In this document: piece after piece, positions 29,715 to 58,019 of the stretch
Layout: the number at the start of each line of letters is the position of its first letter
Numbering within the stretch: position 1 is the stretch's first letter
NCBI GenBank assembly: GCA_017418945.1
Contig: JAFOMI010000040.1
Span: forward strand, 32-64,031
Source of the DNA: Bacilli bacterium
GTDB taxonomy: Bacteria > Bacillota_I > Bacilli_A > RF39 > UBA660
DNA length: 64,000 nt
Direction: 5' to 3'
The notes under the pieces: generated by a model
The model's database searches: none
What the model saw: the letters and a program-made list of their open reading frames with translations, nothing else
What the model was told of the DNA's origin: nothing
Made by a program: the position numbers and the translations under genes

Positions 29715-30446
29715 ATGTTAGTAATAAAGAATTTATATGCAAAAGCAAAAGATGGTAAAGAAATACTTAAGGGATTAGATTTAGAAATAAAAAAAGGTGA
29801 AATACATGTTATTATGGGACCAAATGGTTCTGGTAAATCAACTTTATCTAATGTTATATTAAATAATCCTAAATATGAAATAACAAGTGGAGAAATATAT
29901 TTTGAAAATGAATTAATTAATAATTTAAAAACAAATGAAATTGCTAAAAAAGGAATATTTATGTCATTTCAAACACCAGTAGAAGTAGAAGGTGTTAAGA
30001 TATCAGAGTTTTTAAAAACAGCAAAGAATTCAATTAGTGATGAAAGAGTAAATTTATTTAAATTTATAACAAATTTAGAAGAAAATATGGATAAATTAAG
30101 CATAAAAAAAGATTTCATAAATAGAGAATTAAATGTTGGCTTTTCTGGTGGAGAAAAAAAGAAAAATGAAATATTACAATTACTTACTTTAAATCCTAAA
30201 CTTGCTATTTTAGATGAAACAGATTCAGGTCTTGATATAGATGCAATTAAAGTAGTATCTAATGGAATAAACTTATTTAAAAATGAAAATAATTCAGTAA
30301 TAATTATTACTCATAATGCTAAAATATTAGAGAATTTAAAAGTAGATTATGTACATGTTTTAGTAAATGGAAAAATAATTAAAACAGGAGATTCTTCATT
30401 AGCGAAAGAAATAGAAGAAAATGGATATTCTAAATATTTAAAATAG
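29715..30446 (+). CDS. sufC: Fe-S cluster assembly ATPase SufC
   Basis: Walker A GPNGSGKST, ABC signature FSGGEKKKNE, Walker B LAILDETDSGLD. Confidence 0.9.
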   Translation: MLVIKNLYAKAKDGKEILKGLDLEIKKGEIHVIMGPNGSGKSTLSNVILNNPKYEITSGEIYFENELINNLKTNEIAKKGIFMSFQTPVEVEGVKISEFLKTAKNSISDERVNLFKFITNLEENMDKLSIKKDFINRELNVGFSGGEKKKNEILQLLTLNPKLAILDETDSGLDIDAIKVVSNGINLFKNENNSVIIITHNAKILENLKVDYVHVLVNGKIIKTGDSSLAKEIEENGYSKYLK

Positions 30447-30453
30447 GTGTTAT

Positions 30454-31842
30454 ATGAAAACAAGAATAGAATTAGATGATAATATATATAATAAAAAAGT
30501 AAAAGAAGAATCTGTTAGTAAAATAGTAGGTTTAACTAAAGAAATAGTAGAGGAAATAAGTAAAGAAAAAGATGAACCAAAATGGGTTCTTGATATTAGA
30601 TTAAAAGCTCTTGATTATTTTAATAAATTACCTATGCCAAATTGGGGACCAGATTTATCTATGCTTAATTTAGATGAAATAAGTACCTATGTTAAAAGAG
30701 GAATTAATACTTCTGATAAATGGGAAGATGTTCCAGAAGAAATTAAAAATGTATTTGATAAACTTGGTATCCCAGAAGCTGAGAAGAAAAGTTTAGCGGG
30801 TGTTGGTGCACAATTCGATTCAGAAATGGTATATCATAAAGTACAAGATGATTTAAAAAAACAAGGTGTTATATATTGTAATTTTGATACTGCGATTAAA
30901 GAATATCCTGATCTTGTTAAAGAATATTTTACTAAAGCAGTACCTATAATGGATCATAAATTTATCGCACTTCATTATGCTTTATTTTCAGGTGGTTCAT
31001 TTGTATATATACCAAAAGGAGTACATTTAGATAATCCTCTTCAATCATATTTTAGATTAAATTCAAAAGGTGCTGGTCAGTTTGAACATACATTAATAAT
31101 AGTGGAAGAGGATTCATATTTAGAGTTTATTGAAGGATGTTCAGCACCTGGTTATAATACATTAAATCTACATGCAGGATGCGTGGAATTATTTGTTAAA
31201 AAAAATGCATTATTAAGATTTTCTACAATAGAAAATTGGTCTAAAAATATGCTAAATTTAAATACAAAAAAAGCATATGTAGATGAAAATGGTAAGATAG
31301 AATGGATAATGGGTTCTTTTGGTTCAAAGATATCTATGCTTTATCCTATGAGTATTTTAGAAGATAATGCTAAATGTGAAATGACACAGCTTTCATTTGC
31401 GGGTAAAGGTCAAAATTTAGATACTGGATTAAAAGTAGTATGTAATGGTAAAAATACAAGTACAGTTGTTAATTCTAAATCTATATCAAAAGATGGAGGA
31501 ATATGTACTTTTAGAAGTAATGTTTTAGTAAATAAAAAAGCATCTAATTCTAAATTATCTCTTTCTTGTGAATCATTAATGCTTGATAGTATTTCAAGAA
31601 GTGATACCATTCCATCATGTACTATATTAAATGATGATACTATTTTTTCTCATGAAGCTAAAATAGGTAAAATATCAGATGATACTATATTTTATCTTAT
31701 GAGTAGAGGTCTATCTGAAGAAGAAGCTAAATCTATAATAGTAAGAGGATTCGCAGAACCAATATCAAAAGTATTCCCAGTTGAATATGCAGTTGAAATG
31801 AATAGATTAATTAATATGGAATTAGAAGGAACAATAGGTTAG
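30454..31842 (+). CDS. sufB: Fe-S cluster assembly protein SufB
   Basis: 462 aa with SufB/SufD beta-helix core. Operon position after sufC. Confidence 0.85.
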   Translation: MKTRIELDDNIYNKKVKEESVSKIVGLTKEIVEEISKEKDEPKWVLDIRLKALDYFNKLPMPNWGPDLSMLNLDEISTYVKRGINTSDKWEDVPEEIKNVFDKLGIPEAEKKSLAGVGAQFDSEMVYHKVQDDLKKQGVIYCNFDTAIKEYPDLVKEYFTKAVPIMDHKFIALHYALFSGGSFVYIPKGVHLDNPLQSYFRLNSKGAGQFEHTLIIVEEDSYLEFIEGCSAPGYNTLNLHAGCVELFVKKNALLRFSTIENWSKNMLNLNTKKAYVDENGKIEWIMGSFGSKISMLYPMSILEDNAKCEMTQLSFAGKGQNLDTGLKVVCNGKNTSTVVNSKSISKDGGICTFRSNVLVNKKASNSKLSLSCESLMLDSISRSDTIPSCTILNDDTIFSHEAKIGKISDDTIFYLMSRGLSEEEAKSIIVRGFAEPISKVFPVEYAVEMNRLINMELEGTIG

Positions 31843-31851
31843 GAGGAAGTT

Positions 31852-32805
31852 ATGGAATATATATTAAATAAGACTCCTATTAGGACTACAAATAATTTTA
31901 AAGTAAATGATTTAAAATTAGATTTAGATATTATAAAAACTAAGTTTAAAGATTTTAAAACAAAGAATGTAAATATTAATACTAGAATAGAAAATAATTT
32001 TGAATCTAAGATAGGATTATTAGAAGATAAATATTTATTTGTAGATGTATTTAATAATAATGAAGTGGGTTATTTAGAGTATGACTTTGATAATGATTAT
32101 TTAACTTCTTTAATTAATGTAAATGCATCTAATCTAATAATTATTTTTAAAGGAGATAATGCGTTTTTAAATACTAAAATAGTTATTAATAAAGCAAAAT
32201 CTGTTAGTATTGTTAATTTAACTAGTAAAGATTCTAAATCATTTATATCTATTGAAAATAATACTAATTCTATAGTTAATTTTATTGAACTGGGTGGAAA
32301 AATAAAAGTATCTAATTATTATTCAGTTATTAATGAAGAAAACTCTATAAATACTTTTAATTCTATATATTTAGGTAAAGAAGATGAAGTGTTAGATTTA
32401 AATTATTATATAGGCTTTAATAATAAAAATACTAAGGGTTCTATTAATGTAGAAGGTGTACTTTTAGATAATGCACATAAATCATTTAAAGGCACAATAG
32501 ATTTTTATGAAGGATCTAAAGGTTCTTCTGGTGATGAACTTGAAAACGTAGTTTTATTAAGTGATAAAGTAATATCTAGATCACTTCCTATGCTTCTATG
32601 TCATGAAGAAGATGTTTCTGGAACACATGCTGTTTCTAAGGGAAAAATAGATGAAGAAAAATTGTTCTATTTAATGAGTAGAGGACTTAGTGAAAAAGAA
32701 TCTAAAATAATGATTATATTATCTAATTTTAATAAGATATTAGATAATATTCCTGATATAAATTTAAAAAATGAAATAATAAATGAAATTAGTAAAAGGT
32801 TATAA
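31852..32805 (+). CDS. sufD: Fe-S cluster assembly protein SufD (divergent)
   Basis: C-terminal EEKLFYLMSRGLSEKESKIMI parallels SufB's DDTIFYLMSRGLSEEEAKSII. Operon position. Confidence 0.7.
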   Translation: MEYILNKTPIRTTNNFKVNDLKLDLDIIKTKFKDFKTKNVNINTRIENNFESKIGLLEDKYLFVDVFNNNEVGYLEYDFDNDYLTSLINVNASNLIIIFKGDNAFLNTKIVINKAKSVSIVNLTSKDSKSFISIENNTNSIVNFIELGGKIKVSNYYSVINEENSINTFNSIYLGKEDEVLDLNYYIGFNNKNTKGSINVEGVLLDNAHKSFKGTIDFYEGSKGSSGDELENVVLLSDKVISRSLPMLLCHEEDVSGTHAVSKGKIDEEKLFYLMSRGLSEKESKIMIILSNFNKILDNIPDINLKNEIINEISKRL

Positions 32806-32902
32806 TATAACCTTTTTTTTGATTGAAATAAAATAAAAAAATGTGTATAATAAATAATAATAGATACTACAAGAGAAGCAAAATGTCGTTAGGAGAATAG
32901 TG

Positions 32903-33436
32903 ATGAAAAATTTTATTAAGAATAATTTAAACTTAGTTTTTGCTTTTATAATAGGCGTCTTAATTGCGGGAACTTCAGCGTTTGCAGCCGCAACTATGGC
33001 TGCATCTGATGTAGGATATGATAATTCTAATAGTGGGATAAGTGCGTCAAATGTTCAAGAAGCTTTAGATCAACTTGATCAAAAAGCAAATTATCATGCA
33101 GTTAATCCTGCTTATTTTGGAGATTTTTCGGTATTAAAATTTAATTCTAGTAAAACTATTATGGCATCAAAATATTTACTTTGTATAACTATGTATAATA
33201 GCCGTTATTCAGTTGCGTGTTTTAGAAATAATAACTGGGCAGTAGAACAGAATCATATTCAGGATGTATTTTATGATGGTACTTGTACATGGGGAACTAA
33301 TAATGCAAATATACAATGTAGTAATACTAAATTTCTATGTACATTTCAAAGTAGTGGATATGTATCTTGTACTTATAAAACTAATAATACTTGGTGTTCT
33401 GTTTACGCAGGTAATACTTGTAACTGCGGTACGTAG
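32903..33436 (+). CDS. Secreted/membrane-anchored Cys-rich protein, paralog A (tail-fibre-like N-terminal motif)
   Basis: N-terminal TM/signal (LVFAFIIGVLIAGTSAFAAAT). Motif YDNSNSGISASNVQEALDQL. C-terminal domain with about 10 Cys. Paralogous to the next ORF. Confidence 0.65.
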   Translation: MKNFIKNNLNLVFAFIIGVLIAGTSAFAAATMAASDVGYDNSNSGISASNVQEALDQLDQKANYHAVNPAYFGDFSVLKFNSSKTIMASKYLLCITMYNSRYSVACFRNNNWAVEQNHIQDVFYDGTCTWGTNNANIQCSNTKFLCTFQSSGYVSCTYKTNNTWCSVYAGNTCNCGT

Positions 33437-33445
33437 GAGGAAAAT

Positions 33446-34006
33446 ATGAATAAAATAAAGAATTTAATAAAGAAAAAATATAAAGTTATTATTTCGTTTT
33501 TCCTAGGTATGTTTGTTGCGGGCACAACAGTATTTGCGGCAACTTATTATTTTAAGGCAACAGACACTACTTATACTAATTCAAATAGTACTCTTTCATC
33601 AACTAATGTTAATGATGCATTAGATGAATTATATAATAAAACAAAAGCAATGGTAAACACAGGATATATATCAATTTTTTCAAACCTAAAGTTTTCATCA
33701 AACAAAAAAATTATGGCATCTAATTATATGGTTTGTATAGATTATTATGCTAATAATTATTCAGTTGTGTGTTTTAAATATAATAATTTTAATGTTGAAA
33801 AATATAGAATTAGAAGAGTATTTGGAAGTGGAGCCTGTACAGTTACCGGTGGAAATTTTTACGCTTCAAATGATCCTGGAACAACAACTAAAGTATCTTG
33901 TACTGCGAATAATTTTACTTGTGAAGTGCAAAAAACTGGATATGTTTACTGTGGTACTGCGGGTAAATCCTGCTATATATCATCAGGAACAGCAACTTGT
34001 AATTAA
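33446..34006 (+). CDS. Secreted/membrane-anchored Cys-rich protein, paralog B
   Basis: Same architecture as paralog A: signal/TM, YTNSNSTLSSTNVNDALDELY, and a Cys-rich C-terminal domain alignable with A (KIMAS(K/N)Y(L/M)(L/V)CI...YSV(A/V)CF). Confidence 0.65.
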   Translation: MNKIKNLIKKKYKVIISFFLGMFVAGTTVFAATYYFKATDTTYTNSNSTLSSTNVNDALDELYNKTKAMVNTGYISIFSNLKFSSNKKIMASNYMVCIDYYANNYSVVCFKYNNFNVEKYRIRRVFGSGACTVTGGNFYASNDPGTTTKVSCTANNFTCEVQKTGYVYCGTAGKSCYISSGTATCN

Positions 34007-34051
34007 GAAGATTTTTATCTTCTTTTTTAATATATTTTTTTGGGAGGACTT

Positions 34052-34498
34052 ATGAATAAAGAAGAATTATTAAATTTTAGAAGAAACTATATGGAGGCAA
34101 GAAATAAAAGAAGAAATATTTTTGATGAAGATAAGTGCTATCTTAATGAAGCTGTTTCTAAGACTAAGATAAAAAAAGAAAATAGTAATAATATAGTTGT
34201 ATATGAAGGAACATATAATAAAGATAAATTTGGTTTATCAATTACATTTGATGATGATTTAAATGCATCTTTTAAACAATTTAGAGATATAGAAACTAAA
34301 GAATTATATTTAGTTTCATTAAATGAATTAGATAGTTTTTATAAAGAACATATTATAGTTAATTGTAATGTTAATATTGTAAATATAGATATATATGATA
34401 AGAGTTATGATGATACTAGAGAAACATTCTTTAAAGGAGTATTAGAAGAATCACAAGATAAAGTTATATTAAAGTTAATAAGAAAAGATTATAATTAA
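34052..34498 (+). CDS. Hypothetical cytoplasmic protein (149 aa)
   Basis: GGGAGG RBS before the ATG at 34052. No motif recognised. Confidence 0.5.
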   Translation: MNKEELLNFRRNYMEARNKRRNIFDEDKCYLNEAVSKTKIKKENSNNIVVYEGTYNKDKFGLSITFDDDLNASFKQFRDIETKELYLVSLNELDSFYKEHIIVNCNVNIVNIDIYDKSYDDTRETFFKGVLEESQDKVILKLIRKDYN

Positions 34499-34564
34499 TC
34501 TTTTTTTAGTAAATATATAATTTGTTAATATAAATTTCAATCATATTATATTCTAGGTGATAAT

Positions 34565-35254
34565 ATGAAACTTGGAATAGATATTTCTTCACTTGATGAT
34601 ATAGATTATAGTTTGTTAAAAAAGAATAATATTAGTTTTGTAATTATAAAAGGAGATACTAGTTTTAATAAACATTATTATAATTTGTTAAAGAATAAAA
34701 TAGATATAGGAGTGTATTTTGAATCAAAAGCTAAATGTAAAAGTGAATTGGTTAAAGAAGTAGATACTTTATTAAATATATTAGATGATAAAGTATTTAG
34801 TTATCCTATTTTTTTATCAATTACAAATTTAGATACTAATATAGAAGAAGTTATAAAGTATTATGATTTTGTTTTAAAAAGAGAAGGTTATTATTTTGGA
34901 ATATATTCTAACTTAAGTATTTATAAAAGTATATTAAATAAGTATGACTATGAATATTGGATATCTATTTATGATGATAAGAAACCTGATATTAAACTTG
35001 GAATATGGCAAAATACAAATGATTTTTATTTAGGAAAAAGTAAGCTGCGATTATCTTATTCTTATAAAGATTATTCTAAAATAATAAAAGAAAAATATTT
35101 GAATAATAATTATGATTTTAAACCGGATGTTTATATTATAAAAAAAGGGGATACAATAAATAAAATAAGTAAAAAGTATAATATTCAAAAAGAAATATTA
35201 AAAAATAATATTTCTTTAGAACCTGGAAGTACTATTAATATTGACAATTTATAA
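34565..35254 (+). CDS. GH25-family muramidase (lysozyme) with C-terminal LysM domain, no signal peptide
   Basis: N-terminal GIDISS...FVIIKG pattern of GH25 (Lyz2-like). C-terminal YIIKKGDTINKISKKYNIQKEILKNNISLEPGSTINI is a LysM repeat. No N-terminal hydrophobic segment. Confidence 0.6.
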   Translation: MKLGIDISSLDDIDYSLLKKNNISFVIIKGDTSFNKHYYNLLKNKIDIGVYFESKAKCKSELVKEVDTLLNILDDKVFSYPIFLSITNLDTNIEEVIKYYDFVLKREGYYFGIYSNLSIYKSILNKYDYEYWISIYDDKKPDIKLGIWQNTNDFYLGKSKLRLSYSYKDYSKIIKEKYLNNNYDFKPDVYIIKKGDTINKISKKYNIQKEILKNNISLEPGSTINIDNL

Positions 35255-35286: not shown

Positions 35287-36318
35287 ATGACAAAGGGAGA
35301 TATTTATACTAAAGAAATAATAAAAAGAATATTAGAAGAGGGTACTCTTGATGAAAATCCAAGACCTAGATATTTAGATAGGACACCTGCGCATACTTTA
35401 TCTTGTAATCATGGTATGTGTACTTATGATTTAACTAAGAATGAATCACCAATAATAACTTTAAGACCAATTGCGGTAAAGTTATCAATTGGAGAATTAT
35501 TATGGATATATAGAGATGCTGATAATAATATATATAATTTAGAAAAGAATTATGGAGTACGTTGGTGGAGAGAATGGTGTGTTAATAAAATGCATTATTC
35601 TTTAAGTGGAGATTTAGTTGATGGACCAAATCCATTTAAAGGATATTATTTTGATTCTAAAGGTAAAATGATTGAACTAGGTGAAAAATCTAGTGATGTT
35701 AATCCTAAAACAGATATTGATAGTAATGAATTTATACTTGATTCAAAATTTGGAAATGTTTTAACTAAAGACGCTAGTTTAGGATATTGTTATGGTGGAA
35801 CTGTTAGAGAACATAATTTATTTAATAAATGTGTTAATGATATTAAAACAAATCCTTTTGGTAGAAGACACATTATTAATTTATGGCAAGATGAAGATTT
35901 TAAAAAGATACATGGACTTGAACCATGTGCATTCTTAACTGAATGGAATGTTAGAAAAGTAAATGGTGAATATTATTTAGATATGTGTTTAACACAAAGA
36001 TCAAGTGACTTTATAACCGCAGGATGTATTAATCAAACTCAATATATGGTATTTTTATATATGATGGCAAGAGAAGTAGGTATGAAACCTGGAAGATTTA
36101 CTTGGTTTTATAATAATATACAAATATATGATAGACATATAGATGACGCTAAAGAATTACTTTCAAGAGAACCTATTTTCTGTGAACCAAAAATAGTAAT
36201 TGATGATAATGTTAAATCATTTGATGATATGACACAAAATAATGTAAGATTAGAAGGATATCCAATTGAAGAAATAAATAAGAAAAACAAAAAGTTAAAA
36301 CTTGAAGTTGCAATATAA
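35287..36318 (+). CDS. thyA: Thymidylate-synthase-family enzyme (ThyA/dNMP-hydroxymethylase fold), divergent, 343 aa
   Basis: DRTPAHTLS (compare DRTGTGTLS), ELLWIYRD, NPFGRRHIINLWQDED, LEPCAFLTEW (catalytic Cys, but no His after PC) and CLTQRSSDF (QRS.D). Insertions make it longer than canonical ThyA. Confidence 0.7.
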   Translation: MTKGDIYTKEIIKRILEEGTLDENPRPRYLDRTPAHTLSCNHGMCTYDLTKNESPIITLRPIAVKLSIGELLWIYRDADNNIYNLEKNYGVRWWREWCVNKMHYSLSGDLVDGPNPFKGYYFDSKGKMIELGEKSSDVNPKTDIDSNEFILDSKFGNVLTKDASLGYCYGGTVREHNLFNKCVNDIKTNPFGRRHIINLWQDEDFKKIHGLEPCAFLTEWNVRKVNGEYYLDMCLTQRSSDFITAGCINQTQYMVFLYMMAREVGMKPGRFTWFYNNIQIYDRHIDDAKELLSREPIFCEPKIVIDDNVKSFDDMTQNNVRLEGYPIEEINKKNKKLKLEVAI

Positions 36319-40521: not shown

Positions 40522-41868
40522 ATGATCTTTATGAAAAATAAAATAGTATATTTTATGATTTTTTTATTATGTATTATTATAGTTTTACTTTTATTTTTAG
40601 AAGATTATAATACTGCGCCAACTATTACAAAAGTATATTATAAAAATGAATATAATAGTGATAAAACAAGAGATGTTTTTATTAAGATTAAAAGACATAA
40701 TAAAAATAATATATATTGTAAATTTATAGATGAAAAGAATAATGAAAGTGATTATTTATTAGCGTCAAATAATAGATGTACTTATAGTATTAAAACTGGT
40801 AAATATAAAATTATTATTAAATATAATGGTAATAAAAAAGTTAGTTATGAAAAGAAATTTGATATAGATGATATATTATCTATTAAGATAACTAATCATA
40901 AAAAGTATTTAGCTCTTGGTGATAGTATAAATTTAAATGTTAAATTAGATTATGTTGGTAATGTTGATACTAATGTTAAATATGAATCTAGTAATAATGA
41001 TATATTAAGTGTTGATGAAAACGGTAATGTTAGAGCTAATAATGTAGGAAGTGCAGTTATTAAAGTAAAATCATCAAATAATTTAAGTGATGAAGTAGAA
41101 ATAATAAGTACTAATTTAATTAGACCTAAAACTTTAGATAATAATAAGCAAATAGTTTCATGTAATTCTTATAGTCAAGAAGATATAGCTATTTTAGATG
41201 ATATATTAGATAGTAGAGTAAAAGAAGCAGGTGTAGGAACTAGAGCAGCAGTTGCGGTAGCATCTAGATTTTTAACTTTAGAGTTTCCATATAAAGTACC
41301 ATATTTTTATGAAAATGGAAGACTTACTTTAAATGGTGTTACTGGAGAAGGAAGATATTATAAAAAAGGATTATATCTTGGAAAAGAAAAAGAAAATGAG
41401 ATGACTAAAGTAGTTGCAGGTCCATCATCTTGGGGATGTCCACTTCTTAATTATGAAGATGATGGATATAGAATTCCAAGACATTATTATCCTAATGGAT
41501 TAGATTGTAGTGGATATGTTACTTGGGTTTTAGTACAAGCAGGATTTGATTTAGGTGATATAGGTGCAGGTATTAATCCTTACGATTATGATTATACTGA
41601 TGTTGGTGAACTTAGATATAATTCTTATGATTTACTTCATTCTGGTTCTGTTAAAGTAGGAGATTTAATAGGATGGGATGGACATATTGCGATAATAGGA
41701 GCGATGAGTGATACTAAGATATATGTTACTGAAAGTTTACTTCCAGGAGTTATAATGGATGAGTATGATTATTCTAGTCCATATAGTAAATTTTATAGTA
41801 GATATGATTATATAATAGATATGTCTAATGTTTATAAAGAAGATGGAAATTTAGAAAACATGTTTTAG
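40522..41868 (+). CDS. Cell-wall hydrolase: signal/TM, Big_2-like domain, C-terminal NlpC/P60 peptidase
   Basis: N-terminal hydrophobic segment. Ig-like region (ITNHKKYLALGDSINLNV...SVDENGNVRANNVGSAVIKV). C-terminal DCSGYVTWVL (catalytic Cys) and GDLIGWDGHIAIIG (His). Confidence 0.75.
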   Translation: MIFMKNKIVYFMIFLLCIIIVLLLFLEDYNTAPTITKVYYKNEYNSDKTRDVFIKIKRHNKNNIYCKFIDEKNNESDYLLASNNRCTYSIKTGKYKIIIKYNGNKKVSYEKKFDIDDILSIKITNHKKYLALGDSINLNVKLDYVGNVDTNVKYESSNNDILSVDENGNVRANNVGSAVIKVKSSNNLSDEVEIISTNLIRPKTLDNNKQIVSCNSYSQEDIAILDDILDSRVKEAGVGTRAAVAVASRFLTLEFPYKVPYFYENGRLTLNGVTGEGRYYKKGLYLGKEKENEMTKVVAGPSSWGCPLLNYEDDGYRIPRHYYPNGLDCSGYVTWVLVQAGFDLGDIGAGINPYDYDYTDVGELRYNSYDLLHSGSVKVGDLIGWDGHIAIIGAMSDTKIYVTESLLPGVIMDEYDYSSPYSKFYSRYDYIIDMSNVYKEDGNLENMF

Positions 41869-49314: not shown

Positions 49315-51402
49315 ATGATAGAAAACTTAAACGAAAGACAATTAGAGGCCGTACAAAACATAGATGGACCAATGCTTGTACTTGCAGGTGCAGGTTCTGG
49401 TAAAACAAGAGTTTTGACAACAAAAGTTATGTACCTTTTAGAACATAGAGATATTTCTCCAAGAAATATTTTAGCGATAACTTTTACTAATAAAGCTGCT
49501 AAAGAAATGAAGGAAAGAATTTATAATTTAATTGGTAGAGAAGCTTTTTTAATACAAATATCAACATTCCATTCATTTGGATTAAAATTATTAAAAGAAA
49601 ATTATGAATTACTTGGTTATGATAGCAATTTTACTATAATAGATGCTGATGATTCATTAACAATGATTAAGAAAATAATGAAAGAATTAGATATAGATTC
49701 TAATAAATATAATTATAGAGCAATTAGATCTAGTATTTCAGATAATAAAAATGAAATGGTTTCAGTAAAAGAATATGAAAAATTTGTTTATACTGATTAT
49801 GATGAAGTAGTATATAAAGTATATGATGAATATGAAAAAAGTTTAAAAAGAAGTAATGCAATAGATTTTGATGATTTACTTTTATTACCAATAAAGTTAT
49901 TTAATGAACATGAAGATGTTTTAATTAAATATCAAGATTTATATAAATATGTATTTATAGATGAGTATCAAGATACTAATAAACCTCAATATTTATTAAG
50001 TAAAATGATAAGTGGAAAATACAAGAATATTACTGTTGTTGGAGATAATGACCAAGCAATATTTACTTGGAGAGGTGCAGATTATAAAAATATATTAAAT
50101 TTTGAAAAAGATTATCCTAATGCGAAAGTAGTTATATTAGATGAAAATTATCGTTCTACTAAAACTATTTTAAAAGCAGCGAATAATGTTATTAAGAATA
50201 ATAAAATTAGAAAAGAAAAGAATTTATGGACTAATAATGAAGAGGGTAATTTAATAAAATATTATAAAGCATATGATGAAAAAGATGAATCTAGTTTTGT
50301 TGTTAAAGAAACAAAAAAATTAATTAGTGAAGGAATAAGTCCTGATGAAATATGTGTTTTATATAGAGCAAATGCTCAAAGTAGAAATGTTGAAGAAGCA
50401 TTCTTGCAAAATAATATTTCATATAAAATAGTTGGTTCTTATGCATTCTATAATAGAAAAGAAATTAAAGATTTAATTGCGTATTTAAAACTAATTCATA
50501 ATGAAAAAGATGATGTTTCTTTACTTAGAGTTATTAATTATCCAAAAAGAGGAATAGGTCAAAAAACAATAGAAAATTTAAGTATAGTAGGAAGAAATGA
50601 AAATAAGTCTTTATATGAATCAATTACGTCTAATAAAGAATTAGAATTTAAAAATATAATAGAAGCATTAAAAAAAGAAAAAGATTCAATGCCTTTAGTA
50701 GATTTTATTGAACTTGTTTTAAATAAAACTGGTATTAAAGAAAGTCTTAAAAGTGAAAAAACTCTAGAAGCAGATATTAGACTTGAAAACTTAGAGGAAT
50801 TTAAGTCAATTGCGCACAATGCTGAAGAAGTTAGTGGAATAGTAACATTAGAAGATTTTTTAGATGAAATTAGTTTAGTAACTGATGCATCTGAAAATCA
50901 AAGTGATAATGAAGAAAAGGTTACTTTAATGACTATGCATGCAGTTAAGGGACTTGAATTTGATTATGTATTTGTAGTAGGAGTAGAAGAAGGATTATTT
51001 CCTCATTTAAATTCTATGAATAGTGAAGAAGAACTTGAAGAAGAAAGAAGACTTTGTTATGTTGCTATTACAAGAGCTAGAAAGAAACTATATATAATTA
51101 ATTCTAGAAGTAGATTATTGTATGGTAAAGTAACAAGTAATATACCTAGTAGATTTATATCTGAAATAGGTGATGATTTATTAGATCAAGAAAGAAAAGA
51201 TAATGTTTTCTCTAAGAAAATTAATAGAGAAGATATGATTACTAATAATGATTTAAAAAGAGGAGATTTAATAAGACACGATAAATATGGAAATGGTGTT
51301 GTTATTGATATAGATGGAAAAATTGCAACTATTTCATTTACAAAAGAAGGCGTTAAGAAATTATTAAAAGATCATAAAGCAATAAAGAAAGTGAGTGAGT
51401 AA
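49315..51402 (+). CDS. pcrA: ATP-dependent DNA helicase PcrA (UvrD family)
   Basis: LNERQLEAV...GPMLVLAGAGSGKTRVLT (motif I), DEYQDTN (motif II), VGDNDQAIFTWRGA, TMHAVKGLEFDYVFV. Start at the ATG after the GGAGGA RBS. Confidence 0.93.
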   Translation: MIENLNERQLEAVQNIDGPMLVLAGAGSGKTRVLTTKVMYLLEHRDISPRNILAITFTNKAAKEMKERIYNLIGREAFLIQISTFHSFGLKLLKENYELLGYDSNFTIIDADDSLTMIKKIMKELDIDSNKYNYRAIRSSISDNKNEMVSVKEYEKFVYTDYDEVVYKVYDEYEKSLKRSNAIDFDDLLLLPIKLFNEHEDVLIKYQDLYKYVFIDEYQDTNKPQYLLSKMISGKYKNITVVGDNDQAIFTWRGADYKNILNFEKDYPNAKVVILDENYRSTKTILKAANNVIKNNKIRKEKNLWTNNEEGNLIKYYKAYDEKDESSFVVKETKKLISEGISPDEICVLYRANAQSRNVEEAFLQNNISYKIVGSYAFYNRKEIKDLIAYLKLIHNEKDDVSLLRVINYPKRGIGQKTIENLSIVGRNENKSLYESITSNKELEFKNIIEALKKEKDSMPLVDFIELVLNKTGIKESLKSEKTLEADIRLENLEEFKSIAHNAEEVSGIVTLEDFLDEISLVTDASENQSDNEEKVTLMTMHAVKGLEFDYVFVVGVEEGLFPHLNSMNSEEELEEERRLCYVAITRARKKLYIINSRSRLLYGKVTSNIPSRFISEIGDDLLDQERKDNVFSKKINREDMITNNDLKRGDLIRHDKYGNGVVIDIDGKIATISFTKEGVKKLLKDHKAIKKVSE

Positions 51403-52379: not shown

Positions 52380-54422
52380 ATGAATATAAATGATTTTGAA
52401 AAAGAAATAAACATTATTAATAATAGAGTACAACTTTTAGATGAACAAATTAAAAAATTAGAAGAAGATAGATTAAGAAGAGAAGAATCTCAAATAACTT
52501 TAGTTGGTCAAGAAAAACCAAAGATTCCTAAAACCCCTGAACAAGTTAGTCTAGAAAATGAAAGACAAGAATTAATTATTAATAAGAATAGAATTATTAA
52601 TACTATGAACTCATATAATAGAATTAAAAAAGATTCAGATAATAGTGATTTCAAAGGTATGGATATTAATGATTTTATAAGAATTAGAGATAATTATGAT
52701 AAAGAAAGAAAAGAAATATTAAAGAATATAAATAAACTTGAAGGAGAAAGAATCCAAAAAGAATTAGATTCCTTAACTGTTGTTGGAAAAATACCTAAGG
52801 TTTCAAAATCAAAAGAACAAATAGAATTAGAAGAAAAGAAACAACTTTCAGAAACTAGATATCAATTAATGGTTAATACAATTAATATTTATAACGGTTA
52901 TAAAAAAGAATTAGAATCGTTAGCAAATGAAACTGATTTAAAAAAGAAAGCAGATGGAATAGCAAGCATTATTTATAATGCAAATAAAAGAGGATTTCCT
53001 GAACAATTATTAGTTAACTTACTTGAAGGTAAAGAACCTGTAAAAAAGGAAGAAGCAGTAGTTAGTAATGAACCTAAAGAAGAAATAATAGAAGTAATTG
53101 AAGATAATACTAATAATATAGAAAAAGATATTAAAAAAGAATTTATTAGTGATAAAAAAACTATATTTAATTCAAGAGAAGAAGAAATTAAATTTGAATT
53201 AGATAAGAGTATGAAAAGATTACAAGTTGCTATTTTAAATGATGATGAAAATGCTATTGCAGAAGAAAGAAGTTATAGACAAAGTTTATTAAATGAATTA
53301 TTTGAAATAAAGAGACTTGCTAAAGAAGAAGAAATTAATAAAAAAGTTAAAGAATTAGAAGAAGAACTTAAAAAGACAGTAAGTAATATTGATGAAGCAA
53401 AATTAATTGGTGATGATAACTTAATTGCTAGAGAAATTGGAAATAGACAAAGAATTCAATCTGAAATAGCAAGATTAAAAGGATTTGAAGAACCTAAAAA
53501 AATAAATAGTCCAGTAATAAAAAATGTTGAAAAAGAAGAAAAAAATAAAGTTAATCCGATAAAGGTTGAAAATCCAAAAATAATTGAACCAGAAAAGGTT
53601 AAAGAAACAAATAAAATTAATCCTATTAAGATTGAAAATCCACGTGTGAATGAAGAACCTAAAAAGGTAGGTATATCTAAAGAAGAAATAAATAAAATGA
53701 TTTCTATATTAAATGCTAAAAAAGAAGATATAGATTCTAAAATAATAAAAATAGATTTAAATGCACCTTTTGAAGAAACAGCAAAACAAATGAAAGAATA
53801 TATTAAAACATGTAAAGAAATTAATAAACTTAAAGAAGAATTATATTCATTAGAAGAAAAACCTAAAGCTAAAGAAGAAATTTCTGAAGTTAAGGAAGAA
53901 TCTAATAAAGAAGAAGTTTCTGAAGTTAAGGAAGAATCTAATAAAGAAGAAGTTTCTGAAGTTAAGGAAGAATCTAATAAAGAAGAAAAGTCTGAAGTTA
54001 AGAATGAAGAAAAAGAAGAAAAGAAAAAGAGAACTCCAAAATTCAAACGTTTCTTAACAAAATCAGTCCCAGGATTCTTAAAAAGAACAGGTTTTAAAAT
54101 AAGAAGTATATTTGATAGAAGTGATGAAATAGATTTTAGTTCAATAATTAAAAATGAAGATGATAAATCTATAGATGATGAGAAAAAGAATCAAACATCT
54201 TCTGATACTGTTTTAGATGAAATTGGTAAAGAAAAAGAAACAAAAGAAACAGTAGAAATAAAAGAAAAAATTGGTAAAGATATTGATAATTTATTAAAAG
54301 AAAAAGAATTATTAAATGAGAAAAAGAATGAATTAAATAGTAAATTGGAAGATGAAACTAAAAAACAAATAGATGAATTTTTTAAAGAAGTAAATGAAAA
54401 TTTAAATTCAATGAAAAGATAA
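52380..54422 (+). CDS. K/E-rich coiled-coil protein with three 12-aa tandem repeats (EVKEESNKEEVS)
   Basis: 680 aa, low complexity, predicted long coiled-coil. Internal 36-nt x3 DNA repeat. Confidence 0.6.
   Translation: MNINDFEKEINIINNRVQLLDEQIKKLEEDRLRREESQITLVGQEKPKIPKTPEQVSLENERQELIINKNRIINTMNSYNRIKKDSDNSDFKGMDINDFIRIRDNYDKERKEILKNINKLEGERIQKELDSLTVVGKIPKVSKSKEQIELEEKKQLSETRYQLMVNTINIYNGYKKELESLANETDLKKKADGIASIIYNANKRGFPEQLLVNLLEGKEPVKKEEAVVSNEPKEEIIEVIEDNTNNIEKDIKKEFISDKKTIFNSREEEIKFELDKSMKRLQVAILNDDENAIAEERSYRQSLLNELFEIKRLAKEEEINKKVKELEEELKKTVSNIDEAKLIGDDNLIAREIGNRQRIQSEIARLKGFEEPKKINSPVIKNVEKEEKNKVNPIKVENPKIIEPEKVKETNKINPIKIENPRVNEEPKKVGISKEEINKMISILNAKKEDIDSKIIKIDLNAPFEETAKQMKEYIKTCKEINKLKEELYSLEEKPKAKEEISEVKEESNKEEVSEVKEESNKEEVSEVKEESNKEEKSEVKNEEKEEKKKRTPKFKRFLTKSVPGFLKRTGFKIRSIFDRSDEIDFSSIIKNEDDKSIDDEKKNQTSSDTVLDEIGKEKETKETVEIKEKIGKDIDNLLKEKELLNEKKNELNSKLEDETKKQIDEFFKEVNENLNSMKR
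53886..53993 (+). repeat. 3 x 36-nt perfect/near-perfect tandem repeat inside the K/E-rich gene
   Basis: gaagttaaggaagaatctaataaagaagaagtttct repeated three times; the last copy ends aagtct. Confidence 0.8.
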
Positions 54423-56488: not shown

Positions 56489-56621
56489 AATAATATTTTG
56501 ATATTTAAATTTTGGTATTAATAAAATTTGATTTTTGATAAAGAGTGCTTACAAAATAAGCATTCTTTTCGTTTGTTTATATTTTTTATTTATGTTAGTA
56601 TTTTTGCTCGAGGTGAGAAAA

Positions 56622-58019
56622 ATGAATAAAAAATATAAAATTTTAGTATTTTTAATGTTACTTTTTATAAGTGTTTCAGTTAAGGCAGAAACAGTTACTC
56701 AAGAATTTATTGATGGAGTATGGTCATATCATTATCGAAATGGTGATGTATGGACTTTTGGTAATTTACCATATAATTATTTGGAAGGGAAACTAGTTTA
56801 TTGTATTCAACCAGATGCAAGAATAACAACTAGTAACTATTATACTTATGGAGATTTTTCTTTATCAGGATATAGTGAAGATGTAAGAAGAGAGATGGAA
56901 CTAATTTCATATTATGGATATGGGTATGAAGGACATAATACTTTAAAATATTATATGGCTACTCAAGAATTATTATGGCTTTTTTCAAAAGATGAATATA
57001 TAAAATGGACTACTTCTAATAGTAGAAGTTCTAGTGAAATTGATATTAGTTATGAAAAGGAAGAAATTAAAAAATTAATTAGGTCTCATGATGTACTCCC
57101 ATCATTTAGTAATATAAATTTTGAAACAAATGTCAATGATGAAATAGAATTAATTGATTATAATAGTGTTTTAGGTAAATATGATATAGAAATAGATGAA
57201 AGCATTAACTATGAAATAAATGATAATAAGTTAATATTAAAACCATCTATAAAAGGAGAATATATTATTAATTTTAATCCTAAAGTTAACTATAATTCTG
57301 ACACTCTTATATATGATGATTTTTCAATTAGAACTCAAACACTCGCATCTTTTGGTAAACCATCTTTAAATAGTTTTAGTATTAAATTAATTGTAAATCC
57401 AAAAAATAGAATTATTATTAATAAGACTGATGAAGATAATAATAATTTAGAAGGAGTATCATTTGAGATATATGATAAAGATTATAATATTGTAGATAAT
57501 ATAGTAAGTTCTAATGATAAGACAAGTTCAAAAGAATTAGCGAAAGGAACATATTATGTAAAAGAAACAAAAGAATTATATGGTTTTGTTAAAGATGATA
57601 ATTTATATGAAATAAATTTAAATGATAAAGATGAGGAATTAAATATTATAAATGAAAAGATTAAATGTGAAGTTACTGTTATATCAATGGGTAATGATAA
57701 TAAAATAGATGCTAGTTTTAATATATTTGATAGAAATGGTTATTTAATATATTCAGGTTCTACTATAAATGGAGTATTAAAAGTAGAACTTCCATATGGA
57801 GACTATGTCTTAAAAGAAATTAGTGTAGATAATGGTTATTTACTTAATAATAAAGAAGTTAATTTTACTGTTAATGATATATCATGCACTTCAACTTTAA
57901 GTATTTTGAATGAAGAAATAAAAATGCCAATAACAACTTCAACTAATTATAAATTAAATTATATGCTTTTATTCTTGTTTAATATAGGTGGGTTATTTTT
58001 TGTTAAAAAGAATAATTAA
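56622..58019 (+). CDS. Surface adhesin-like protein with thioester domain (TED) and Ig-like repeats; probable sortase substrate
   Basis: Signal peptide MNKKYKILVFLMLLFISVSVKA. YCIQP (Cys-Gln thioester pair context) and MATQELLWLF (the TQxxxW TED motif). C-terminal hydrophobic segment plus KKNN tail. Start at the RBS-supported ATG. Confidence 0.6.
   Translation: MNKKYKILVFLMLLFISVSVKAETVTQEFIDGVWSYHYRNGDVWTFGNLPYNYLEGKLVYCIQPDARITTSNYYTYGDFSLSGYSEDVRREMELISYYGYGYEGHNTLKYYMATQELLWLFSKDEYIKWTTSNSRSSSEIDISYEKEEIKKLIRSHDVLPSFSNINFETNVNDEIELIDYNSVLGKYDIEIDESINYEINDNKLILKPSIKGEYIINFNPKVNYNSDTLIYDDFSIRTQTLASFGKPSLNSFSIKLIVNPKNRIIINKTDEDNNNLEGVSFEIYDKDYNIVDNIVSSNDKTSSKELAKGTYYVKETKELYGFVKDDNLYEINLNDKDEELNIINEKIKCEVTVISMGNDNKIDASFNIFDRNGYLIYSGSTINGVLKVELPYGDYVLKEISVDNGYLLNNKEVNFTVNDISCTSTLSILNEEIKMPITTSTNYKLNYMLLFLFNIGGLFFVKKNN

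Follow-up and report, generated by a model that had tools for sequence, protein, structure and literature searches.

A tandem pair of predicted secreted Cys-rich proteins in a Bacilli bacterium, probable fixed cousins of a binder diversified by retroelements

To our knowledge, targeted protein hypervariation in prokaryotes is known in nature from a single system, the variable proteins of diversity-generating retroelements (DGRs). The variable region (VR) domains of these proteins have been described as systematically C-type lectin (C-Lec) domains (PMC8144416 with its Supplementary Note 7; PMC5758913). Older "Ig" classes of VR, the "Ig1" class of Wu et al. among them, were reinterpreted: both Roux et al. 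and the authors of the tentaclin paper favor DUF6273/C-Lec for these classes (PMC8144416, PMC10743442), and a DUF6273-like domain found in phage DGR targets is reported to be similar to the C-Lec fold (tentaclin paper, PMC10743442). Here we analyze a tandem pair of paralogous genes in 64 kb of DNA from a Bacilli bacterium (assembly GCA_017418945.1, contig JAFOMI010000040.1, positions 32 to 64,031; this whole stretch is called the window). Both genes encode a small protein with a Cys-rich C-terminal domain, and in relatives the homologous domain is targeted by DGRs. We consider it somewhat more probable than all other explanations taken together that the pair is a two-gene unit of Sec-exported small proteins, the fixed cousins of a DGR-diversified binder. 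We propose more tentatively, at a little under an even chance, that the Cys-rich ~100-aa beta domain is a structurally distinct, non-C-type-lectin DGR scaffold in which one whole face of a five-stranded beta-meander is randomized (at least 12 AAC codons, ~10^14 or more variants) and Cys on the other face hold the fold, and that the window shows its frozen, duplicated form. The DGR evidence sits in the relatives and not in the window. The window result itself is modest, two static members of an uncharacterized family, and it is the family-level finding that carries the interest.

The two genes and the parts of their products are located as follows.

32903..33436, + strand: paralog 1, open reading frame (ORF) of 177 aa; AGGAG at 32891-32895, with the ATG 7 nt later
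32903-32986, + strand: predicted signal peptide of paralog 1 (aa 1-28)
33008-33082, + strand: tail-fibre-type motif of paralog 1 (aa 36-60)
33128-33433, + strand: Cys-rich beta domain of paralog 1, 9 Cys (aa 76-177)
33446..34006, + strand: paralog 2, ORF of 186 aa, 41% identical to paralog 1 over 157 aa (E=2e-36)
33446-33538, + strand: predicted signal peptide of paralog 2 (aa 1-31)
33563-33634, + strand: motif of paralog 2 (aa 40-63)
33680-34003, + strand: Cys-rich domain of paralog 2, 8 Cys (aa 79-186)

A preliminary description, made from the sequence alone, had reported two tandem paralogs with N-terminal signals and a conserved Y(D/T)NSNS...NV(Q/N)(E/D)ALD(Q/E)L segment. We found both same-strand ORFs, and the segment is present in each; an alternative GTG start at 32900 would extend paralog 1 to 178 aa. 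The ~110-aa C-terminal domain with 9-10 Cys is likewise present as a Cys-rich domain, but the actual counts are 9 and 8. Orthologs of paralog 1 are 94% and 75% identical to it, and paralog 2 is a 100% match to the NCBI entry "MAG: hypothetical protein IIZ40_02845 [Bacilli bacterium]". The genes of this region are seen again on short contigs from ruminant gastrointestinal metagenomes.

Both paralogs begin with a K-rich n-region and a hydrophobic stretch of 17-20 residues, followed by an A-x-A site (AFA↓AA and VFA↓AT, read from the sequence), and every sequence in the family alignments has Ala at the predicted -1 position. These features are those expected for export by Sec and signal peptidase I, and by them cleavage would be likelier than membrane anchoring. 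Eight of the Cys positions can be aligned between the paralogs, and most members of the family conserve them; in an alignment of 71 sequences, two Cys never vary and five others reach at least 90% conservation. The Cys-rich domain had no significant match in Pfam, NCBIfam, PHROGs, PADLOC, PDB sequences, or Foldseek (PDB and BFVD), and the PDB sequence search with family profiles A2 and A5 gave no meaningful match.

Word-indexed searches with single paralogs returned close orthologs only; the family emerged from an exhaustive profile search, in which HMMER retrieved 3535 proteins at E<=1e-3. These include dozens of clusters of 165-200-aa proteins that align end to end, and also large proteins that match only at profile positions ~35-65, the motif. 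The family alignments comprise a signal peptide, the motif with a variable linker, and the ~100-aa domain. The consensus of the latter is ...K-T-I-x-A-S-x-x-G-V-C-I-x-R-N-x-x-x-x-C-F-K-x-N-N-[WYF]-x-x-E-K-x-H-I-Q-Q-V-F-S-D-x-x-C, followed by five short Cys-ended segments. A Pfam scan of the 71 aligned members found no recurrent family, and no source gives a name to any of them. We propose that the family is uncatalogued, with members in gut and rumen metagenome-assembled genomes (MAGs) of the Bacilli/Erysipelotrichaceae type.

The Cys-rich domain is doubled in P0022 and P0028, and it is fused to the C-terminus of the TasA/camelysin-like protein P0216 (Peptidase_M73, 9e-10; weak TasA/BsaA NCBIfam matches). 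The signal and motif module, in turn, is joined to DUF6273 in P0219 (8e-21) and to other domains elsewhere. Judged from these arrangements, both modules are mobile. In a reindeer-gut Bacilli MAG (L011:2-1191), a tandem pair consists of a 173-aa protein that carries the signal and motif with an unrelated, Cys-less C-terminal domain and, after it, a 174-aa AT-rich (non-DGR) member with the Cys domain, followed by ligA. This is a further case of tandem proteins sharing the signal and motif module.

An AlphaFold2 model from a 13-sequence alignment was unusable (predicted local distance difference test, pLDDT, 42) and was remade with the 71 sequences. In the new model, the block-mean pLDDT of the Cys-rich domain is 79-96, mostly above 90. 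The domain has one helix (112-122) and strands at 86-88, 92-96, 104-108, 127-130, 136-140, 144-149, 154-158, 163-167, and 173-176; its C-terminal half is predicted to form a five-stranded beta-meander. The motif region, modeled with lower confidence, is an extended stretch and then a helix at 51-63.

In relatives, the homologous domain is targeted by DGRs: most homologous loci have a DGR variable region as the final ~50 codons of the Cys-rich domain. In L014, 149 nt of the 3' end of the family gene (product P0171) recur downstream of it as a direct repeat; bAvd and a split RVT_1 gene come next, and 20 of the 22 mismatches between VR and template repeat (TR) fall at adenines of the downstream copy, the TR. 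L018 has a target (P0161) that is 42% identical to paralog 1, then the repeat, Avd (NF033474, 9e-9), and an intact 373-aa RVT_1 reverse transcriptase (RT); all 27 mismatches within the aligned repeat are at template adenines. The corresponding counts are 22/22 in L031 and 26/28 in L038. Avd or RT adjoins the domain in L012/13, L014, L018, L029, L031, and L038, and partial TR remnants occur in L030 and L023. In 19 of ~29 distinct loci, the 3' 150 nt of the gene is GC-rich (0.47-0.60 versus 0.26-0.37 upstream).

Decayed DGR cassettes were also seen beside family members. The RT of L014 (8508-9514) is split into two ORFs, short Avd and RT remnants lie at L012:7825-8210, and the TR remnant at L023:805-871 is 57-67 nt long. 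L016 and L017 have flanks like those of L014, with the cassette wholly absent.

The TRs encode a peptide (...CNVNSSNVNCNASDFNCNVNSNGNVNCNDNSDNSNCNVNSDGSVNCN) in which Asn (AAC/AAT) occupies alternate positions, and their Cys codons (TGC/TGT) are free of adenine. Across metagenomes, proteins that are near-identical over the N-terminal ~125 residues are massively different in the last ~50. In four subfamilies, the per-column entropy alternates between 2-2.9 bits and ~0 over the positions equivalent to residues 129-176 of paralog 1; the Cys positions are essentially invariant, and the upstream columns mostly have low entropy. This i, i+2, i+4 pattern falls on the predicted strands, with Cys at the positions in between. 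The domain looks like a binding scaffold, because the hypervariable positions alternate along predicted strands and are offset from the invariant Cys. From the alternation and the predicted secondary structure, and not from the model coordinates, one face of the sheet would be variable and the opposite face lined with Cys. We detected no resemblance of the domain to C-type lectins (no Pfam, PDB, or Foldseek match to CLec folds). The preliminary description had considered a receptor-binding-like or bacteriocin-like pair. Its use as a DGR variable region in relatives gives strong, if indirect, support to the receptor-binding part for the Cys-rich domain; the bacteriocin-like part is not supported.

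None of the DGR hallmarks is present in the window. Its 64 kb contain no TR-like repeat of the 3' end of either paralog and no Avd, RT, SipW, DUF5305, or TasA-like gene, and when the Avd and RT of relatives were used as tblastn queries against it, the best match (E=0.02) was inside an AMP-binding enzyme. A DGR inside the window is ruled out by these repeat, Avd, and RT searches, and the window genes are not DGR targets themselves. The GC content of the last 150 nt compared to the rest of the gene is 0.31/0.30 for paralog 1 and 0.35/0.25 for paralog 2 (DGR-type relatives have 0.49-0.60 in the last 150 nt), and no GC-rich element resembling the initiation of mutagenic homing (IMH) site lies 3' of either stop codon.

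The order SufD, paralog 1, paralog 2, 146 aa, GH25-like, ThyA is found again in the diverged relative L024. The paralogs are 75-80% identical to their L024 orthologs, whereas SufD, the 148-aa ORF, the GH25-like protein, and ThyA are 86-90% identical to theirs; the paralogs evolve faster than their neighbors. The final 26-27 residues are the same in the L024 orthologs (100% identity), and over the final 26 a further relative of paralog 2 (P0011) shows 92% identity. The differences from L024 lie in the linker after the signal (53-60% identity) and, for paralog 1, also in the first hairpins of the VR-equivalent region (43%). The conservation pattern of the window copies is the opposite of that in the DGR-type relatives. 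The non-DGR minority of the family consists of the window lineage (the window, L024, and L028) and a few other loci such as L011.

The N-terminal segment was suggested to be a motif of phage tail-fibre and receptor-binding proteins, and the following matches support this. Giant proteins carry repeats of the motif: P0014 (5298 aa) has 53 motif stretches and P0015 (2706 aa) has 25, and in these two, as in P0016 and P0017, the repeated unit is ~25 aa, YDNxxSGLxAxNVQxAIDEL. The motif-repeat proteins match phrog_2137, "tail fiber protein", with E-values of 1e-11 to 1e-17. Paralog 2 matches the same entry weakly and with its motif only (E=0.0063), and paralog 1 gives no match. A protein with three repeats gives weak matches to genes annotated as tail fibre in a Pelagibacter phage and in an uncultured marine phage. 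In IMG/VR contigs, the motif lies within large fibre-like ORFs with collagen-like repeats, for example in L108 (1030 aa, ...GYSNTGSGLEATNVQEAIDEL...LPLTGGTM...). In the cultured Faecalibacterium phage FP_Taranis, the motif spans aa 20-44 of gp68, a protein annotated in its record as [quoted passage not shown]; gp68 is directly 3' of baseplate and tail-fibre genes, and a reverse transcriptase is 1.2 kb downstream.

Motif-only cellular proteins adjoin RTs in several human-gut contigs (L063, L093, L095, and others). Among the DGR targets of both phages and cells, the motif recurs at the N-terminus, and it most likely acts as a docking or oligomerization adaptor. The Cys-rich domain was absent from the 80 IMG/VR loci fetched and from 50,697 phage records, in which only the motif was matched; phage-encoded versions of the domain were thus not found in these sets. 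The window copies also lack a phage structural-gene neighborhood: their flanks are housekeeping genes, and the proteins have signal peptides and are only 177 and 186 aa long.

In the explanation we favor, each protein of the pair would consist of a cleavable signal peptide, the ~25-aa motif (YxNxxSxLxS(T)NVQxALDEL), homologous to the phage tail-fibre unit and to the N-termini of phage DGR targets and serving as an adaptor, and a ~100-aa all-beta domain with eight conserved Cys. In the relatives, adenine-specific mutagenic retrohoming would randomize Asn-encoded positions at alternate residues of the strands, and Cys and other scaffold residues would stay fixed. The alternation would place the variation on one exposed face of the sheet, a programmable ligand-binding surface with the Cys opposite. 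The window copies would be germline-fixed binders that were duplicated and diverged; each would have a fixed ligand, and they would probably resemble lectins or adhesins, either secreted or associated with the cell surface. The 148-aa ORF, the inactivated GH25-like/LysM protein, and ThyA would be lineage-specific neighbors and not partners.

Several points weigh against this explanation. The synteny from SufD through the pair, the 148-aa ORF, and the GH25-like gene to ThyA is kept in L024, and a functional link within the lineage is not disproved. In L023, the family member with the TR remnant is followed by a signal-less protein with Amidase_3 and three LysM domains. Family membership, the architecture, the DGR targeting in relatives, and the lack of DGR hallmarks in the window are observed, but export and cleavage, disulfides, ligand binding, the adaptor role of the motif, and the independence of the pair from its neighbors are inferences. 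Finally, "fixed" refers to 64 kb, and a DGR elsewhere in the genome may be compatible with the data.

The other features of the locus are the following.

32794..32820, + strand: terminator-like hairpin with U-tract closing sufD (RNA fold -7.7 kcal/mol, 10-bp stem then U8)
32823..32851, + strand: sigma-70-like promoter candidate for the pair, TTGAAA-17-TATAAT (11/12 consensus matches, top of the scanned region)
34005..34030, + strand: terminator-like hairpin 3' of paralog 2, AAGAAGAT-TTTT-ATCTTCTT plus T-tract (RNA fold -8.9 kcal/mol)
34052..34498, + strand: hydrophilic ORF of 148 aa (149 codons including the stop), no database match
34565..35254, + strand: GH25-like domain (aa 1 to ~170) and one LysM domain (aa 190-221, 35132-35227), no signal peptide (Pfam, tblastn)
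35287..36318, + strand: ThyA-family thymidylate synthase, a neighbor outside the feature (Pfam PF00303, 3e-56)

The GC content is ~24% across the window, and the composition is uniform (0.21-0.27). Upstream of the pair are sufC-sufB-sufD (+ strand, 29715-32805; sufD matches Pfam SUFBD_core, 5e-43). Five + strand genes lie 3' of suf, namely the two paralogs, the 148-aa ORF, the GH25-like/LysM gene, and the ThyA gene; these are followed by a Crp-family regulator on the opposite strand and then nrdD and nrdG. The promoter candidate is a consensus match, and the overall number of such sites does not exceed the shuffled expectation. The hairpin at 34005-34030, which stands between paralog 2 and the 148-aa gene, was not called by a strict terminator scanner; its stem has few G-C pairs. 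With promoter-like and terminator-like signals at the consensus level, the pair looks like a transcription unit of its own.

A 149-aa cytoplasmic protein without signal peptide had been described after the pair, and the ORF of that description is the 148-aa one found here. It has no signal and no match in Pfam, PHROGs, NCBIfam, PADLOC, PDB, or phage records. As a degenerate Avd it was rejected (BLASTP E=0.42). The ORF is 86% conserved at the ortholog locus L024. By tblastn, neither it nor the GH25-like protein was detected in any of the other fetched family loci outside the window lineage, and the contexts of these loci vary widely (PFOR, YchF/RpsF, LigA, serine recombinases, SipW/DUF5305). 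The 148-aa ORF probably does not belong to a functional unit with the paralogs.

The next gene had been read as a signal-less GH25 muramidase with a LysM domain. The architecture and the homology to phage endolysins stand. The LysM domain is above the Pfam threshold (PF01476, 25.0 bits versus a gathering score of 20.9), but the GH25 match is below it (PF01183, 26.0 bits versus 27.0), and the catalytic D-x-E is lost. In tblastn searches, the protein matched a GH25-type endolysin of Erysipelothrix phage phi1605 (2e-16), annotated as an amidase in its own record; other matches are annotated "GH25 PlyB-like endolysin" or "1,4-beta-N-acetylmuramidase", and the identity to phage endolysins is 28-31%. 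The sequence had no meaningful match to solved structures. For comparison, we take the catalytic residues of Cpl-1 to be Asp10, Asp92, Glu94, and Asp182. Aligned with Cpl-1 and a pair of GH25 enzymes from phages (alignment A6), the protein retains the first Asp (D6) and has S-I-T in place of the catalytic D-x-E. At a later column, it has Arg where the two phage enzymes closer to it have Asp; Cpl-1 aligns poorly at this column, and its equivalence to Asp182 is not established. The L024 ortholog (87% identical) has the same S-I-T and Arg. A lysozyme activity is probably a wrong assignment, because D-x-E is replaced by S-I-T and the later Asp column reads Arg. Most likely, the protein is a conserved, non-catalytic, endolysin-derived peptidoglycan-binding protein, that is, a pseudo-enzyme.

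The divergent ThyA-family gene noted after it was recovered as such. The protein, of 343 aa, has ~60-70 aa inserted behind its N-terminal region and is 87% identical in L024. Its NF002495 score (260 bits) is below the cut-off, as are its other NCBIfam equivalog scores. Canonical ThyA has PCH; this protein reads ...LEPCAF... at that position.

In L018 (595-6898), and also in L037, L038, L019, and L067, we observed a recurrent operon that ends in a Cys-rich DGR target, TR, Avd, and RT. Its 5' part encodes a protein with a TasA-like signal, a SipW-type peptidase with a long N-terminal extension containing multiple transmembrane segments (TIGR02228, 77 bits), DUF5305, and a second protein with a TasA-like signal, which ends in the tail-fibre motif. 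The arrangement suggests that a DGR diversifies an adhesin of a TasA-like fibre system; no publication on a connection between DGRs and SipW was found in a literature search.

These operons suggest an alternative to our favored explanation, in which the window proteins are fibre-associated adhesins, tip or accessory subunits of SipW-processed TasA-like fibres, with the motif docking on the motif of a fibre subunit. The SipW-type peptidase and DUF5305 are immediately 5' of a family member in L018, L037, and L038, the upstream protein of L018, which has a TasA-like signal sequence and no family match, ends in the same motif (...LSYDNTNTGLNCSDAQCAIDAL), and P0216, P0233, and P0238 join the Cys-rich domain to N-terminal domains of the Peptidase_M73/TasA type. 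However, SipW, DUF5305, and TasA-like genes are absent from the window, many family loci lack such neighbors, and neither the window proteins nor P0171 match SipW-type signal models (the window proteins also lack a Peptidase_M73 match in Pfam and NCBIfam). We regard this role as quite unlikely for the window pair. A decayed prophage is less improbable, if still unlikely: the pair would derive from a phage DGR-target or receptor-binding gene and the GH25-like gene from an adjacent endolysin, and these survivors of a tail/lysis region would have been domesticated. The motif as a fibre and DGR-target element, the endolysin homology of the signal-less GH25-like protein, the order large protein, holin, GH25 in phage phi1605, the lysin-like gene directly after the family member in L023, and the large serine recombinases beside several DGR-bearing relatives all fit such an origin. 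Against it, the locus has no further phage, integrase, or recombinase gene nearby, being flanked by Suf, ThyA, Crp, and NrdDG genes in DNA of uniform composition; the Cys-rich domain itself was not matched in the phage sequences searched; the pair carries signal peptides, unlike virion proteins; and the 148-aa ORF is not holin-like and has no phage match. The phage derivation suggested in the preliminary description is possible only as a remote relic.

That description had also tentatively combined the genes into a bacteriocin-like or toxin pair, a possible immunity protein (the 148-aa ORF), and a GH25-LysM lysin for release. Small, secreted, Cys-rich, tandem, fast-evolving proteins beside a lysin-like gene would suit this model, as would the synteny kept in L024, yet the catalytic acids of DxE are missing from the GH25-like protein, the candidate for immunity is a soluble protein confined to the window lineage, and a terminator-like hairpin closes the pair, which also has its own promoter-like signal. 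Pfam, NCBIfam, and PADLOC revealed no transporter, processing protein, immunity-like membrane protein, or known bacteriocin or defence family, DGR targets in surveys are mainly binding proteins (PMC8144416, PMC5758913), and nothing supports a toxin function. We consider this module very improbable and do not retain it. Even less credible is that the window genes are trans targets of a remote DGR and are still being diversified. Remote targeting or cassette loss does occur in the family, as GC-rich VRs without a local TR or RT are found in L008, L009, and L016, and the 3' end of paralog 2 is slightly GC-enriched; but neither 3' end has a GC-rich IMH-like sequence, the last 26-27 residues are identical in L024 orthologs that overall are 75-80% identical, and the differences between the paralogs and those orthologs lie elsewhere and are not confined to alternate positions.

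Some further features of the window are unrelated to the pair. A 680-aa, highly charged, coiled-coil-like ORF without Pfam match (52380-54422) lies between a PcrA-like helicase operon and ligA and contains three 36-nt tandem repeats (~53896-54000, peptide EEVSEVKEESNK). A surface protein of the Gram-positive adhesin type, with a thioester domain (TED) and SpaA prealbumin-like domains, is encoded at 56535-58019. The RNA family RF03531 of Rfam (n00280, a Clostridioides difficile small RNA "included into helicase gene") matches at 51012-51110 with 69.5 bits, inside the UvrD/PcrA-like gene. At 40522-41868, a 448-aa protein, predicted to be exported, has a Big_2 domain and a C-terminal region resembling NlpC/P60 (…GLDCSGYV…GHIAII…), the peptidase domain of which was not reported at the E-value threshold used.

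If our explanation of the pair and its family is true, a Cys-braced beta-sheet scaffold that tolerates randomization of alternate residues would be a second solution besides the C-type lectin, of interest to DGR biology and to binder engineering. The frozen window copies would then be fixed-specificity reference points for the ligands of this binder class in gut and rumen Bacilli. What had been hypothetical Cys-rich proteins become the subject of a testable prediction, namely that they are secreted ligand binders of fixed specificity, and the misleading reading as a lysozyme/bacteriocin module is removed. The DGR targets of phages and of cells are also found to share a short, widespread motif at their N-termini, which may be a common docking adaptor. 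We found no description of a Cys-rich DGR scaffold in the literature; large DGR catalogues may hold the cluster under an anonymous identifier.

Among known systems, the TasA/CalY/camelysin proteins (Peptidase_M73) are connected to the family through members fused to TasA-like N-terminal domains and through loci that adjoin SipW-type peptidases; the window proteins differ from them in having neither a TasA-like domain nor a nearby SipW gene. The GH25-like neighbor shares with GH25 endolysins (Cpl-1, PlyB-like) a TIM-barrel of the GH25 type, a C-terminal LysM domain, and the absence of a signal peptide, but its D-x-E has become S-I-T, no holin is present, and it is conserved at 87% as a probable pseudo-enzyme. 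The unit YxNxxSGLxAxNVQxAIDEL is common to phrog_2137 fibres and the giant repeat proteins, whereas the window proteins carry it only once, lack both a fibre shaft and a collagen-like region, and give a weak direct match (E=0.006).

FP_Taranis gp68 and the "tentaclin"-type targets have the same N-terminal motif (ISYDNSKSGISAANVQEAIDAL versus VGYDNSNSGISASNVQEALDQL; 71% identity between the motifs of gp68 and paralog 1 over 24 aa), and the cellular protein P0219 carries the signal and motif module together with DUF6273. In contrast to the window proteins, with their signal peptides, different C-terminal domain, and chromosomal housekeeping context, gp68 has 546 aa, no signal peptide, Ig-like repeats, and a DUF6273 VR domain, and it is part of a tail gene cluster. 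The closest comparison is with the DGR variable proteins (Mtd of Bordetella phage BPP-1, Treponema TvpA, and Legionella LdtA), the last of which is likewise an exported or surface protein. The window genes differ from these in having no VR/TR/IMH, Avd, or RT, and the scaffold differs from the C-type-lectin fold in being a Cys-rich beta-meander with alternating variable positions across predicted strands. The relatives of the window genes have the same C-terminal VR of ~50 codons with adjacent TR, Avd, and RT, the same adenine-specific substitutions, and the same AAC codons, and ligand binding is the presumed shared role.

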